Part shown: piece by piece, positions 13,108-29,317 of the stretch | Position numbering within the stretch: the stretch's first letter is position 1 | How the letters are laid out: each line of letters begins with the position of its first letter | Source: Candidatus Saccharimonadales bacterium | Lineage (GTDB): Bacteria > Patescibacteriota > Saccharimonadia > Saccharimonadales > UBA4665 | Direction of reading: 5' to 3' | Assembly (NCBI GenBank): GCA_038230895.1 | Contig: JBBRMJ010000002.1 | Coordinates: 12,531 to 76,530 of the forward strand | Length of the DNA stretch: 64,000 bases | Notes under the pieces: generated by a model | The model's input: only the letters and a program-made list of their open reading frames with translations | Databases searched by the model: none | What the model was told of the DNA's origin: nothing | Translations under genes and position numbers: made by a program

Positions 13108-13136
13108 TTGTCAGCCCGGACAGTACAATCTATACT
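13108..13136 (+). promoter_or_regulatory. Candidate sigma70-type promoter for the third surface-protein gene
   Basis: TTGTCA (13108-13113), a 17 nt spacer, then TATACT (13131-13136), ending 25 nt upstream of the ATG at 13162. Confidence 0.5.
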
Positions 13137-13161
13137 GCGAGTAGCTCGCCAGACAATAAAT

Positions 13162-14298
13162 ATGAAACAAACACGACAACTAATCTTCCATCGAAGACGA
13201 ACTTTGCTGTTGGCTGTCATGGTGTTCACAGCCATGTTGCTGGGCCCGTGGCAATCAGGCCGTGCCGCAGCGGCCTGCGCTGCGCAAGATACCTCACGCG
13301 GTCAAGTCTCAGCCAGTTTTAGCATTCCACTGACGGGCAGCTATCGGGTATGGAGCCGCATCAAAGCACCAGACAGCACCAATAACTCCTATATCCTAGA
13401 AATTGATGGTACAACCTGCGGTGTGGTCGTTGGCGACAGCGCCACCGCTGCCAACACCTGGACATGGGTCAACTACAAGACGGGTAACAGTGGCAGCCCG
13501 ATTGATATTAATTTGGCGAGCGGTAGCCATTCGCTGACGGCGATTGGTCGAGAAGATGCCGTTTCGATTGACCGAGTCATCTTCACCGCAGATACTAGCT
13601 GCGTTCCCTCTGGCACTGGCGACAATTGCGCCATCGTTATTACGACACCAACCGGTGGTGGTCAACCTGGTGGCAGTACCGGCGCGACCACCACAGGCGC
13701 GACCACGACAACCGCCAGCAGTAGCGGTGGTACGGTCACCGTCCACGCTTCGTCACAGCCACTGACGGTTAGCGGTGACACCAACCTGGTCATCGCGCCA
13801 CCCAGTAGCGATAATCAGGGAGCAAGTCTCGCTAAAGTTGAATATTACATCGACAACAAACTGGTCGACACCGAGACCACAGCGCCCTACACCTACAAGG
13901 TCAATACCAAGATCCTTCAGAGCGGAGTCCATACATTGACCAGCAAAGCCTTCTACGCCGATGGTACGAGCAAATCAACCACCCAAACGTTAACCGTCAA
14001 AAATACTGCCAAGAAAACATCCAACCAGACCGGTGCACTTGGCGTCAGTTTGTTGCTCATTGCGGCGATTTTTGTTGGTCTGTCAATCATCCAGCGTCGT
14101 CGTGGCGGGCTACGGCTCCACGGCGTCACGCTTATACCTGGCAATCACCCAGTGGTGGAAGATGTGACTCTGGCTATGCGCAGCTCGGATAGACCAGGTG
14201 ATGTGGTGCCGGTGCCGACTCAGGCGCCAGCGCCTGGCTCGGTCATCGAGTATCATCCGACCCCGGATGAAACGCAGGGGCCAAAGCCAACACTATAG
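13162..14298 (+). CDS. Membrane-anchored surface protein: signal peptide, CBM-like domain (paralogous to 9288 gene), T/G-rich linker, Ig-like domain and TM anchor (paralogous to 11699 gene)
   Basis: AACAAQDTSRGQVSASFSIPLTGSYRVWSRIKAPDSTNNSYILEIDGTTCGVVVG... aligns with the N-terminal domain of the 9288 gene. LAKVEYYIDNKLVDTETTAPYTYKVNT...VKNTAKK + TM + IQRRRG aligns with the C-terminus of the 11699 gene. The track start at 13108 is TTG; the ATG at 13162 is preferred because of the promoter position. Confidence 0.8.
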   Translation: MKQTRQLIFHRRRTLLLAVMVFTAMLLGPWQSGRAAAACAAQDTSRGQVSASFSIPLTGSYRVWSRIKAPDSTNNSYILEIDGTTCGVVVGDSATAANTWTWVNYKTGNSGSPIDINLASGSHSLTAIGREDAVSIDRVIFTADTSCVPSGTGDNCAIVITTPTGGGQPGGSTGATTTGATTTTASSSGGTVTVHASSQPLTVSGDTNLVIAPPSSDNQGASLAKVEYYIDNKLVDTETTAPYTYKVNTKILQSGVHTLTSKAFYADGTSKSTTQTLTVKNTAKKTSNQTGALGVSLLLIAAIFVGLSIIQRRRGGLRLHGVTLIPGNHPVVEDVTLAMRSSDRPGDVVPVPTQAPAPGSVIEYHPTPDETQGPKPTL

Positions 14299-26479: not shown

Positions 26480-26528
26480 AGCTTAATGATAACAAAGAAA
26501 AAGACTTCAGAAGAAGTCTTTAGATTAT

Positions 26529-26604
26529 TGGAGGGCCCAGCGGGACTCGAACCCGCGACACGAGGCTTAAAAGGCCTCTGCTCTACCAGCTGAGCTATGG
26601 GCCC
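26529..26604 (-). tRNA. tRNA-Lys (anticodon UUU), CCA encoded
   Basis: Hand-folded cloverleaf on the minus strand: GGGCCCA-TA-GCTC-AGCTGGTA-GAGC-A-GAGGC-CTTTTAA-GCCTC-GTGTC-GCGGG-TTCGAGT-CCCGC-TGGGCCC-T-CCA. Confidence 0.92.
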
Positions 26605-26730: not shown

Positions 26731-27375
26731 TCAATCTGAGTCAGCGCTGGAGCGGAGGCTGCCGACACGGCGGAGGCGGGATGCGATGCCAAGCACGATG
26801 ATGAAGAACAAAGTTAGCCATACTATTCGCAAAAAGCCATGTTTGAGGTCAGTGCCTTCGTACAGGCCGTGCAGGAAGACCAGCGGCATCACCACGTAAC
26901 CGAGATAGTGCAGCCATCGCCAGGTAGTTTTGCGGCTGTCGATCCAGCCCAATGAACTGAGGACGATGATGACGATGCCGTACATGGCCAGCACGCCAAA
27001 ACCGACAGCGAGACTACCCAGTGCGAAGCCAAGGAAGCTGGTGCCGTTATTGTTGTGCGATAGAAAGGGGACTAGTACTTGCGGGATAGTAAAAGGCACA
27101 AACTTATCAAACAAGATGAATAGCACATGGATGAAGAGGCTGATACACAGCGCTAGGGCCATGGCTTTGTGTAGTGCCCAGGCTTTGACTGGCTCAATGA
27201 CGCGGTACGTCATGCCCGTTACCTGACCGATGCCCGATAACATCAATAGGATGAGTAGGCCCGCCGAAACAAAGCCAGCGGCGCGAATGATGTACCATTC
27301 CCATGACGTCTGGACGCGTTGGCTGGCAATGTTGAGTGTTGAGGCCGCGAAATGACCGACTAACAGGGCAGTCAT
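26731..27375 (-). CDS. Ferric-reductase-like (NOX/FRE/MsrQ-type) transmembrane domain protein with two His pairs
   Basis: About 5 TM helices. H-x13-H in ALHKAMALALCISLFIHV and H-x12-H in WLHYLGYVVMPLVFLHG, on separate helices. The start overlaps the apbE stop by 4 nt. Confidence 0.65.
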   Translation of the reverse strand: MTALLVGHFAASTLNIASQRVQTSWEWYIIRAAGFVSAGLLILLMLSGIGQVTGMTYRVIEPVKAWALHKAMALALCISLFIHVLFILFDKFVPFTIPQVLVPFLSHNNNGTSFLGFALGSLAVGFGVLAMYGIVIIVLSSLGWIDSRKTTWRWLHYLGYVVMPLVFLHGLYEGTDLKHGFLRIVWLTLFFIIVLGIASRLRRVGSLRSSADSD

Positions 27376-28292
27376 GCCAGCGTTCCATAAGCTTTAGTTT
27401 GCATGTTTCTAGTATGACGAATCTGCAGTAAAGCACCAGTGATATGCTGCTGATTGATAGCCTTTTGCGCAGCCTCAACGCCAAGAATTACCAGATATTT
27501 GGCGTAGATGTCGGCGGAAACTCCGGAAGCTGATATAACCGTAGCGGTCAGCACCTCGGTTACGGCTGGTTTGCCGGTGTGCGGGTCGATGATGTGGTGC
27601 CAGTCTATGCCTCGTCGTTTAGTCGTACCAGAAGTGGCGATAGCCAAGCGTTCGCCAGTACTGTTGGTAATTGTTCGCACAATTTTATCGTTGGCCTCGG
27701 CGTCAGCAATACCGACTTTCCATGGCTGATCCTCGCTATTAAAACCAGCACAGATGATGTCACCACCCAGAGACAGCCAGTAATGCTTAACATGTTTAGT
27801 ATCAAGTAAATCAGCTAGCTGGTCGAGGAGATACCCCTTACCGATGCCGCCACTGTCGAAAGCGCTATCAGCGGGTAATCGAACCGTCGTTTGAGTAAGG
27901 ATGATCGCCTCGCTTTGGGTTGTCGGCCGGCGTTGTCTGTAATCAAGATCTGACTTAATTACCGTCACTGCTGGCCAAGAGCCGACGTAGCCAGCTTGCT
28001 GGAGTGCGGGGAGCACGAGAGGGTTATAGATATCGTCGGTCTGCTCAGAGTATTGCTGGGAAACAACGAGAAAGTCGTGAAAAGCTGGTGTAATGTTTAT
28101 TTCGCTGCCTGCTTCCTCGTTGACGTGGCTCAGCTCACTGTCAGACAGAAACCGACTGAAACGTCGTTCGAAACCGTGAATGCTTGCCCACAACAATTGG
28201 AAGATTGGCTGAGCCGTCGCCTCATCTTTGACGATGATGGTCAGCAGAATATCGGAAGCTAGGCCGCTACCTGCCTGTTGCAAACGCATCAT
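27372..28292 (-). CDS. apbE: FAD:protein FMN transferase ApbE
   Basis: ApbE-family motifs: FERRFSRFLSDSELSHVN, IYNPLV, GGIGKGYLLDQLADLL, LSLGGDI, AIATSGTTKRRGIDWHHIIDPHTGKP. No obvious signal peptide or lipobox at the N-terminus. Confidence 0.85.
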   Translation of the reverse strand: MMRLQQAGSGLASDILLTIIVKDEATAQPIFQLLWASIHGFERRFSRFLSDSELSHVNEEAGSEINITPAFHDFLVVSQQYSEQTDDIYNPLVLPALQQAGYVGSWPAVTVIKSDLDYRQRRPTTQSEAIILTQTTVRLPADSAFDSGGIGKGYLLDQLADLLDTKHVKHYWLSLGGDIICAGFNSEDQPWKVGIADAEANDKIVRTITNSTGERLAIATSGTTKRRGIDWHHIIDPHTGKPAVTEVLTATVISASGVSADIYAKYLVILGVEAAQKAINQQHITGALLQIRHTRNMQTKAYGTLA

Positions 28293-29317
28293 GAGACCGA
28301 GGTTACTGGTGCCCGATAGCTTTGGGTCGTGGTAGTGGTGGTGGGAGTCGGTGTTGGGGCGGGCTGTGTGCTAGTACTATTCGCGCTGGTCGAGGTATTG
28401 TCTGCAGCCGTGGTGTCGCTGCTGGCGGTGTTGGTTGTACCAGCTGCCGTGCTAGCCGAGCTCTTGGTGATTGTGGCAGCAGCTTTGGCTTTGGGCAGGA
28501 CGCGCAGCAAGTCCAGACCCATCACCGTGCCAATTCCCAAGATGAGGAGCAGTCCAGTCAGGGCGTAGGTCATGGTCGGAATAGTCAGTCGATTAAGCCG
28601 CCAGCCAAAGGTGCTACCTTGCGTGAATGACTCAGTTATCACCTGGTCTTCGGCGACATGTTGATTCAGGATGCTTTGCATATCGCTGGTAAAGGCGCTC
28701 GGGCCACAGAGGAAAAAAGTGAACGATTGCCATTCGTCGCCAGTTACTTTGGCCAGCAGGGCTTCGTCGATCCGTCCGCCATAGATGTTCTGAGCTGCAT
28801 TATGTGCTCCCTGACCGGTTACGAATACCACCCGAAATTTAGGGTTTTGCCGCTGCAATTGACGCAATTCAGCAGCGAAGGGCATGTCGTTGGCGCTGCG
28901 ACAGGCGTAGAGCAAGGTGATGGCTCGGTTGTCTCGGGCTTCGGTGGCCGCATGTACGATGCTCATGAACGGCGTGATGCCGATACCAGCGGCTAGAAGC
29001 ACGATGTGCTGGTCTGTCGGATCGAGCACGAAATTGCCGTAAGGGCCTTGGACACGTACGGTGTCACCGGCTTGCAAGCAGGCAACTTTACGAGTGAAAC
29101 GGCCGTGAGTACGCATGGCAAACTGTAATTCACTACCCGCCGGTGCATTGATCATCGAGAAACAGCGCATTGGCGATACGAGGCCGCCGGATTTGAAGGC
29201 AATAGCGGCGTATTGCCCTGGCCAGAATTCCAGGCCAGACTCGCCGTCAACGGGTGCCATTGATAAGACCTGGTAGGTGGGGTAGTGTTGGACGCGGCTG
29301 ACGGTGTAGGCTTTCAT
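28289..29317 (-). CDS. FNR-like FAD/NAD(P)H oxidoreductase with C-terminal TM helix and Ser/Thr/Ala/Pro-rich tail
   Basis: FAD motif RCFS (RxYS type), NAD(P)-binding VLLAAGIGITPFMS, C-terminal FFLCGP. These are followed by the TM segment IPTMTYALTGLLLILGIGTVMGL and about 80 aa of low-complexity S/T/A/P sequence. The stop region overlaps the apbE start by 4 nt. Confidence 0.8.
   Translation of the reverse strand: MKAYTVSRVQHYPTYQVLSMAPVDGESGLEFWPGQYAAIAFKSGGLVSPMRCFSMINAPAGSELQFAMRTHGRFTRKVACLQAGDTVRVQGPYGNFVLDPTDQHIVLLAAGIGITPFMSIVHAATEARDNRAITLLYACRSANDMPFAAELRQLQRQNPKFRVVFVTGQGAHNAAQNIYGGRIDEALLAKVTGDEWQSFTFFLCGPSAFTSDMQSILNQHVAEDQVITESFTQGSTFGWRLNRLTIPTMTYALTGLLLILGIGTVMGLDLLRVLPKAKAAATITKSSASTAAGTTNTASSDTTAADNTSTSANSTSTQPAPTPTPTTTTTTQSYRAPVTSVS

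Follow-up and report, generated by a model that had tools for sequence, protein, structure and literature searches.

The 64-kb stretch of Candidatus Saccharimonadales bacterium DNA analysed here (contig JBBRMJ010000002.1; hereafter the window) contains, at positions 26731-29317, an operon of three minus-strand open reading frames (ORFs): an FNR-type NAD(P)H dehydrogenase subunit (gene 1), an ApbE-family transferase that uses flavin adenine dinucleotide (FAD) as donor of flavin mononucleotide (FMN) (gene 2), and a ferric-reductase-domain (FRD) membrane protein (gene 3), with a 4-nt ATGA overlap at both junctions (Table 1). A preliminary description made from the sequence alone had read these genes as a translationally coupled, split relative of the NADPH oxidases (NOX). 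The ORF coordinates bear out the three coupled genes and their 4-nt overlaps, and the FNR-like, ApbE and ferric-reductase assignments all passed hidden Markov model searches with Pfam.

Table 1. Features of the operon and its surroundings in the window, and separate tag-bearing proteins of related loci (TM, transmembrane)
Feature	Position	Strand	Remarks
Gene 1, FNR-type NAD(P)H dehydrogenase subunit	28289..29317	-	342 aa; C-terminal TM helix, external tail, terminal tag
Gene 2, leaderless ApbE FAD:protein FMN transferase	27372..28292	-	306 aa; PF02424 at 3.8e-50
Gene 3, FRD protein, putative di-heme b subunit	26731..27375	-	214 aa; five TM helices
FNR-subunit TM helix, residues ~246-268	28514..28582	-	AlphaFold2 helix and natural fusions; in-to-out
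External juxtamembrane D-L-x-R-x-x-P-K and disordered linker, residues 269-333	28319..28513	-	FNR-orthologue alignment, pLDDT
Conserved C-terminal tag YRAPVTSVS-COOH	28292..28318	-	Ser342 is a candidate FMN acceptor
tRNA-Lys (UUU)	26529-26604	-	126 nt 3' of the operon, same strand
Terminator-like hairpin	26500-26521	-	beyond tRNA-Lys
Separate tag protein, loci L096/L097			100 aa; ends …PQPRTILS
Separate tag protein, locus L095			123 aa; ends …PKPRTKVS
Separate tag protein, locus L094			truncated at contig edge; ends …TAPRTTVS
Separate tag protein, locus L092			137 aa; ends …PAPQTNVS

The gene 1 product matches the Pfam families NAD_binding_1 (5.6e-16), NAD_binding_6 (1e-7) and, weakly, FAD_binding_6 (1.2e-3); its NCBIfam matches are partial and below threshold, and fall on the FNR modules of flavohemoprotein, PaaE, NqrF and others. 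Direct reading identifies the motifs RCFS, GIGITP, CGP and E-x-F and, beyond them, a hydrophobic helix at residues 246-268, and relatives in the PDB are the FNR modules of flavohemoproteins (7e-19), Fpr, NqrF and the dehydrogenase domain of SpNOX (1e-10). In an AlphaFold2 (AF2) model, residues 1-233 adopt the FNR fold with a predicted local distance difference test score (pLDDT) above 90, residues 246-286 form a single long helix, in agreement with the TM helix first assigned to this protein, and residues 285-342 are disordered (pLDDT <50).

The gene 3 product matches Ferric_reduct (PF01794) at 34.6 bits, above the Pfam gathering score of 28, and carries two histidine pairs, H69-x13-H83 (in HKAMALALCISLFIH) and H156-x12-H169 (in HYLGYVVMPLVFLH), which the AF2 model (five TM helices, pLDDT 83.7) places on helices 2 and 4, as expected from the first reading of a ~5-TM protein with its pairs on separate helices. 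All four His residues are invariant in 32 FRD orthologues, down to 53% identity, and of 125 diverse proteins that represent the FRD family at large, 117 show the paired H-x13-H … H-x12-H pattern, so the 13/12 spacing that had suggested a NOX-like protein is conserved. Within the FRD superfamily, proteins of the NOX type hold two hemes, and MsrQ and STEAP lack one His and hold one heme plus a flavin (PMC12525009). Because all four His are kept, gene 3 is by this published definition of the NOX-type di-heme kind, and its product is accordingly predicted, on residue conservation, to bind heme. Furthermore, its external loops at residues 89-119 and 169-180 (window ~27110-27018 and ~26869-26836) hold invariant residues near the outer heme ligands, namely D90, P103 and N110 (...PFLSHxNNGT...) and the element H169-x4-G174-[ST]-D176-x3-G180, of which G-[ST]-D is also present in distant relatives with the domain order of NOX; these residues are a candidate docking site for a substrate or for an FMN-bearing tag.

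Gene 2 matches the ApbE family in Pfam (Table 1), together with a partial, sub-threshold ApbE match in NCBIfam. All 120 ApbE orthologues compared are 290-319 aa long and start at the first beta-strand (M-x-R-x-Q-Q-x3-L-G-S). The lack of an evident signal peptide, first remarked for the window protein, extends to every one of these 120 orthologues, and no possible upstream extension is hydrophobic. Alignment to the V. cholerae and E. coli structures equates Ser221, His233 and Asp261 with V. cholerae S241, H257 and D285, the catalytic triad of that enzyme (reviewed in PMC12052999), and equates Phe48, a Phe and not a Tyr, with E. coli Y60. An aromatic residue at this last position is a trait of FAD-binding transferases, and the Y60N and Y60A variants become FAD pyrophosphatases (PMC4767422). 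All four residues are invariant in 60 orthologues, as are GGIGKGY and GGD; the invariant triad and the aromatic residue at the Y60 position together suggest that gene 2 encodes a functional, leaderless flavin transferase.

To describe the conservation of this arrangement, we collected related loci from genomes, assemblies and metagenomes. The order FNR, ApbE, FRD is present at all 55 loci with sufficient upstream sequence (a count that takes in the window itself and a few near-duplicates), with flanking genes that vary from locus to locus, and at 21 further loci ApbE followed by FRD is visible as far as the contig end. The same order in 55 of 55 loci with unrelated flanks shows that the three-gene arrangement, including the ApbE gene that had been noted between the other two, is not a matter of chance, and the module occurs widely in Saccharimonadia and in lineages related to them. 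Of 47 FNR/ApbE junctions, 39 have a gap of -4, -1 or 0 nt, which argues for translational coupling with no uniform recoding signal; gaps of +3 to +5 nt also occur. A programmed frameshift or readthrough joining the FNR tail to ApbE (and FRD), and so exporting ApbE as an external loop, would be attractive in terms of topology but was rejected, as the junctions share no common frame relation; a triple FNR-ApbE-FRD fusion is also absent among the 150 representatives listed and the 120 ApbE orthologues. At a few loci ApbE (L076, 555-1511) or FRD (L081, L091) is broken into two ORFs, perhaps as pseudogenes or through assembly frameshifts.

Natural fusions recovered by an exhaustive profile search place the two electron-transfer subunits relative to each other. 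In the single-chain relatives P0241, P0242, P0257 and P0264, an FNR domain is followed by a TM helix, 11-40 residues and the FRD, and the FRD helix 'WxWY...' comes after the FNR-derived TM helix; the more distant P0302, P0305, P0308 and P0315 instead run signal peptide, TSP3 repeats, FRD and FNR, which is the order of NOX. Such FNR–FRD and FRD–FNR chains support the split NOX-like reading. A dehydrogenase fused C-terminal to the sixth TM helix, as in NOX itself, is not the case here, where it is a separate gene; the closest fused relatives carry FNR at the N-terminus, and fusions in NOX order occur only in the more distant ones. Five TM helices are modelled in gene 3, compared to six in the FRD superfamily. 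The fusions indicate that the FNR-subunit helix corresponds to helix 1 in a six-TM FRD bundle, with the FNR tail outside, and the sixth FRD helix would thus be supplied in trans by the FNR subunit.

In this topology the FNR helix runs outward through the membrane, so that the FNR tail lies outside the cytosol together with the N-terminus of the FRD, whose C-terminus is on the cytosolic side. It is supported by an N-terminal signal peptide or lipobox on the FRD orthologues L003, P0244 and P0253, by extracellular-type TSP3 and Ig-like modules on the segments concerned, and by a Cys pair in tail variants. The FRD of P0244, L003 (5803-6570) and P0253 starts with its signal peptide or lipobox-like sequence (...SIGC...) and an external extension of 40-80 residues, and these forms co-occur with FNR tails that end in the two-Cys class described below. 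Directly after the FNR helix, residues 269-276 (~28514-28490) form a juxtamembrane D-L-x-R-x-x-P-[KR] element that is positively charged though external; it is kept in split and tailed forms and is missing or degraded in the fused P0242 and P0257. Possible contacts of this element are the propionates of the outer heme or loops of the FRD.

Beyond it, the tail of the FNR subunit consists of a hypervariable linker and a strongly conserved end. The linker is rich in Ser, Thr, Ala, Asn, Pro and Gln, spans 49-89 residues in orthologue tails (median 66) and is composed of 27% T and 24% S (51% Ser+Thr) with 6% charged residues. The C-terminus of gene 1 (…TQSYRAPVTSVS) ends in the nine-residue tag listed in Table 1, and 86 distinct tails of this type, termed class A, give the logo Y93-Q70-x-P100-[V/M/T/I]-[S/T]100-[S71/R/T/K]-[V77/I/A]-S100-COOH. 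The class-A motif ends 48 of 59 FNR-like ORFs compared to 5 of 1,453 other ORFs, and four of those five are truncated FNR tails. Deeper branches carry two-Cys endings (P-V-C-T-T-S-A-S-G-V-T-T-C-K and YQQPMTCTSRGC) that share the core P-Φ-[T/S/C]-x-x-S, and class-C tails include T-S-A-S-G-V-T. Among the 55 complete loci, 47 tails are of class A, eight are of the two-Cys type and none ends otherwise.

We hypothesized that this tag is the flavin acceptor. Its ending [ST]-x-Φ-S-COOH resembles [ST]-G-A-[ST], the motif recognised by ApbE, in which the acceptor position likewise comes last. Published A→V and G→A mutants of the motif keep ~50% flavinylation and D→A has a minor effect (reviewed in PMC12052999); engineered flavin tags work best at protein termini (PMC12052999), and FMN_red proteins are naturally flavinylated on an unstructured C-terminal extension (PMC11334425). 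From the motif parallel, the mutagenesis and the FMN_red precedent, we infer that the terminal Ser carries FMN, in which case it would stand in for the FMN_bind domain of the 'MsrQ-like' flavinylation systems compared below.

Other candidate acceptors were also considered. Pfam detected no FMN_bind domain in the operon, as the preliminary description had it, and the canonical D-x-x-[ST]-G-A-[ST] motif is absent across the 64-kb window. The only [ST]GA[ST] matches in the window lie in the Thr-rich stretch 'PGGSTGATTTGATTTT' of a 396-aa plus-strand ORF (13108-14298) that also encodes a Big_7 bacterial Ig domain, and this stretch resembles a low-complexity linker, not a flavinylation site. The TGMT sequence in the loop after the first helix of gene 3, put forward earlier as a weak flavinylation candidate, does not hold up, in that its fourth position varies among T, S, I and L, the loop is cytoplasmic (at the position of the NOX B-loop) and it is equally conserved in relatives with no ApbE. 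Two further ideas were rejected: FMN_bind concealed in the N-terminal extensions of related FRDs (the extensions are TSP3 repeats) and flavin domains in long FNR tails (the tails are Ig-like or A/P-rich repeats). The long Ala/Pro-rich tails of the distant FNR subunits P0210 and P0214 (L092, 5001-6794) carry internal tag-like repeats (...PAPTTSAS..., ...PAPVTSVS..., ...PTASVS..., ...PAPVTSASG...) that are reminiscent, by analogy, of multi-flavinylated proteins. The fused P0241 (L010, 2566-4050) carries a canonical 'HAQSGATALS' in the external loop that links helix 1 to the FRD, with no ApbE within its 7.4-kb contig; as a single case with no ApbE nearby it was not used as evidence, and it may be a different solution to the same acceptor role.

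The strongest comparative evidence comes from distant relatives, in which the association of tag and ApbE can be followed beyond the FNR tail. Where relatives in NOX order have a tailless FNR, ApbE is still leaderless and translationally coupled to the FRD-FNR gene, and each such cluster for which DNA was available contains exactly one extra small ORF, consisting of an N-terminal anchor, a low-complexity linker and a tag terminus (Table 1). Among 522 ORFs of at least 30 aa in these loci, the only other tag match is the FNR tail of L057, and the chance expectation of a tag terminus is ~2e-4 per ORF. In the fused loci L010 and L011, by contrast, ApbE is missing from the neighbourhood and no tag-type ORF occurs. 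The separate tag ORFs beside ApbE indicate that the conserved unit is tag, ApbE, FRD and FNR, and in Saccharimonadia the tag is joined to the FNR subunit. At L094 (264-1034) and L095 (854-1273), a secreted acidic protein with TSP3-like Asp-rich repeats lies between the tag gene and ApbE; that of L094 also has a Gln-rich coiled-coil-like stretch, and the local FRD-FNR proteins bear TSP3 repeats too. Ca2+-binding surface modules may belong to the system.

Taken together, we consider it about an even chance that the operon encodes a split NOX-type electron exporter with a dedicated flavin transferase, in which FMN is carried on the C-terminal tag and flavinylation precedes export. Briefly, electrons would pass from cytosolic NAD(P)H to FAD on the FNR subunit, then to the inner and the outer heme b of the FRD subunit, and from the outer heme b to a tethered FMN outside the membrane and on to an external acceptor, for which Fe(III), O2 and host or environmental oxidants are possibilities. 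The FNR subunit would be anchored to the FRD through its own TM helix, which would fill the place of the absent helix 1 in the six-TM bundle, and the flavin carrier would be the linear tag, whose last Ser (...P-V-T-S-V-S-COOH) sits on a disordered, Ser/Thr-rich external stalk of ~60 residues. ApbE is leaderless in every orthologue, and we therefore propose that it attaches FMN to the tag in the cytoplasm, with FAD drawn from the cytosol, before the tail leaves the cell in an unfolded state. Such a route would not need a FAD exporter, compared to the dedicated FAD exporters on which extracytosolic ApbE of Listeria depends (PMC9973259), and export after flavinylation would explain the linear form of the tag, its extreme C-terminal position, the tight coupling and the dispensability of a FAD exporter.

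A more specific form of this proposal is a tentative one, possible rather than probable: the carrier would be domain-less, with FMN attached to the last Ser in the cytoplasm before export, and the flavin would swing on a tether of ~60-150 residues, carrying electrons away from the outer heme towards distant acceptors that may sit on the host surface.

Several observations weigh against the proposed exporter. The tag is external, yet ApbE has no signal peptide in any orthologue, and we know of no precedent for flavinylation ahead of export; the N-terminal anchors of the small tag proteins would, moreover, normally direct these proteins into export during translation. Two canonical motif residues, Gly and Asp, are missing from the tag, which also allows R, K or N at position -2. 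Locus L093 has ApbE, but its FNR tail ends in …NPASTSS after Ig-like domains, only an approximate match, and L057 retains the tag with no ApbE between FNR and FRD. This L057 (450-2224) is the sole locus at which FNR (tail ...PITSVS) is directly followed by FRD, and the sequence after its FNR stop, TCATGATAA, resembles a remnant of an ApbE start, which suggests an ApbE deletion. Structural similarity to NOX is also weak, as a Foldseek search of the PDB with gene 3 returned SpNOX, NOX2, DUOX1 and STEAP1 at the top with E values of at least 0.04 and TM-scores of 0.34-0.45, and a gene 3 profile search of PDB sequences found nothing, NOX, MsrQ and STEAP included, at E<=1. An hhalign comparison of gene 3 with a NOX2 sequence was likewise not significant, and its only local match, of H69/H83 with H101/H115, is a lead only. 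Finally, a gene for an acceptor-side enzyme is absent among the operon's neighbours in the window, and the heme supply of a host from the Candidate Phyla Radiation (CPR) was also counted against the proposal, the genome portion seen being 64 kb.

The leaderless state of ApbE, in the 120 orthologues and in the distant clusters alike, is also what would be expected if the same FNR/FRD conduit were served by an ApbE acting on a cytosolic site, with the tag employed otherwise. Such a site could be a Ser/Thr of the FNR module, for instance Thr75 (G-x-F-T), as a natural form of 'flavin fixing' close to the phosphate of FMN, or Thr53 of the FRD B-loop. We regard this as unlikely, while granting that cytosolic ApbEs exist, as in Klebsiella (PMC12052999), and that the FRD loop S47-G-I-G-x-x-T53-G-x-x-Y57 is invariant within the clade. 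However, neither the Thr75 nor the Thr53 site looks like an ApbE motif. RxFS, GxFT and GIGITP are generic FNR motifs that also occur in relatives with no ApbE, the B-loop is conserved equally in the ApbE-less fusions P0241 and P0242, and Thr53 is replaced both in L092, which has ApbE, and in P0264. A cytosolic site would also leave unexplained the anchored C-terminal P-x-T-x-Φ-S that tracks ApbE across architectures.

Departure of the tag from D-x-x-[ST]-G-A-[ST] (no Gly, no Asp, and R or K allowed at -2) speaks for a second alternative, under which the tag is not flavinylated and serves as an outer-face dock or plug for the FRD, as a metal or substrate ligand, or as a signal for glycosylation, processing or wall attachment, with the ApbE acceptor encoded elsewhere in the genome. 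Ser/Thr-rich stalks are indeed typical of wall-spanning or glycosylated linkers, and our inspection covered 64 kb of the genome. Nevertheless, the tag gene or tail always lies in the ApbE cluster and is absent from ApbE-less loci (L057 keeps the tag without ApbE), ApbE is the sole Ser/Thr-modifying enzyme of the conserved module, and the window and the N-terminal extensions of relatives (TSP3) contain neither FMN_bind nor a canonical motif. We judge this alternative quite unlikely.

That fused relatives work with no neighbouring ApbE, together with the presence of a bis-His NOX-type FRD and an FNR, could point to a plain bacterial NADPH oxidase or ferric reductase, with O2 or Fe(III) reduced directly at the outer heme and ApbE confined to flavin handling in a flavin-auxotrophic cell, by FAD hydrolysis or FMN supply, in the manner of T. 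pallidum Ftp, a FAD pyrophosphatase (PMC4767422). This is improbable, since the position that decides between pyrophosphatase and transferase (E. coli Y60) is an invariant aromatic Phe, and tight coupling and strict co-conservation with FRD and FNR favour a maturation role in the complex. Very improbable, despite the 'YedZ/MsrQ' label that some source annotations give to orthologues, is an MsrQ-type subunit passing electrons to an extracytoplasmic methionine-sulfoxide (MsrP-like) reductase, as all four heme-ligand His are present, where MsrQ and STEAP lack one and use a flavin instead (PMC12525009), and an MsrP-like gene occurs neither in the module nor in the neighbourhood of any locus.

The immediate neighbours of the operon in the window, for RimK, a deaminase, IMPase, ComEC, YebC, an S51 peptidase and RuvC, are housekeeping genes with no relation to it. 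The operon may share a transcript with the downstream tRNA-Lys gene (Table 1), or be read through into it. A promoter and terminator scan gave counts no higher than the shuffled expectation, and only the hairpin past tRNA-Lys stands out.

Saccharibacteria and the CPR are regarded as fermentative epibionts nearly without respiratory equipment. The module described here offers disposal of NAD(P)H electrons outside the cell by a single complex, with possible roles in redox balancing, iron acquisition, production of reactive oxygen species or host interaction. If the tag is indeed the acceptor, the substrate range of flavin transferases extends to a minimal natural 'flavin-tag', sequence searches for flavinylated proteins gain a new motif, and the question arises whether a flavinylated tail can cross the membrane; a domain-less carrier would in turn be a new class of ApbE substrate and a route of export after flavinylation that dispenses with a FAD exporter. 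The tag with its cognate leaderless ApbE might also find use in protein labelling.

Compared with known systems, the general kind, an ApbE-associated electron exporter built from FRD and NAD-binding modules, is already known, and the system is not without precedent. The described class nearest to it, the 'MsrQ-like' flavinylation clusters that combine PF01794, NAD-binding domains and ApbE, was catalogued by Meheust et al. 2021, eLife (PMC8238504; see also Huang et al. 2024, mSystems, PMC11334425). They share with the present operon a PF01794 cytochrome with two predicted heme sites, a PF00175 NAD-binding module, a clustered apbE and the proposed role of exporting electrons from NAD(P)H to a flavin outside the cytosol. 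PF01794 within five genes of apbE is their operational mark, and here the two genes are adjacent and overlapping. In contrast, those clusters are mostly actinobacterial, usually carry the NAD-binding domain at the C-terminus of the membrane protein, include a gene for FMN_bind and were defined by ApbE or FMN_bind proteins that bear a signal peptide or lipobox. In the present operon the dehydrogenase forms a chain of its own, which would give helix 1, and the host belongs to the CPR. Of the domains on which the class definition accepts a signal peptide or lipidation site, ApbE is leaderless and FMN_bind, DUF2271 and DUF3570 do not occur; an FMN_bind acceptor gene is typical of the class though not obligatory. 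Flavinylation systems were found to be strikingly under-represented in CPR (PMC8238504), and surveys found these lineages nearly devoid of them, partly because a signal peptide was required.

With NOX (SpNOX, csNOX5, NOX2; PMC5676040, PMC11031084) the operon shares the H-x13-H plus H-x12-H FRD and the FNR-type FAD/NAD(P)H dehydrogenase. In NOX a single chain carries the dehydrogenase C-terminal to TM6, whereas here there are two chains, with the dehydrogenase N-terminal in fused relatives, ApbE and the tag are added, and the structural similarity scores are weak. E. coli MsrQ with Fre (PMC12525009) is likewise an FRD-family membrane protein reduced by a separate FNR-like flavin reductase, but it holds one heme plus a non-covalent FMN at the inner heme site, where the His on the first of the His-bearing helices is replaced (Arg77); its Fre is soluble and not encoded with MsrQ, its acceptor is MsrP, and it has no ApbE. 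In Listeria extracellular electron transfer (FmnB/PplA/EetB/FmnA; PMC9973259), also a monoderm system with surface-tethered covalent FMN attached by an ApbE-family enzyme, FmnB is an extracytosolic lipoprotein served by an ECF-type FAD exporter, PplA has FMN_bind domains, and the membrane step is carried out by quinones and Ndh2, not by an FRD cytochrome. The closest parallels to the tag are the ApbE-flavinylated FMN_red proteins (PMC11334425) and the engineered 'Flavin-tag' (PMC12052999), which place a short motif on a disordered terminal segment. These use the canonical [ST]GA[ST], and their FMN folds back into a flavodoxin-like pocket; the candidate here, P-x-[ST]-x-Φ-S-COOH, sits at the end of a long stalk that has no domain for binding flavin. 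Among the papers listed by our literature search, none joined Saccharibacteria or Patescibacteria with ApbE or ferric reductase, and within the literature searched the features that appear new are the split with its trans-donated helix, the leaderless ApbE, the occurrence in CPR and, above all, the conserved, tethered tag at the C-terminus, which accompanies ApbE in three different architectures.

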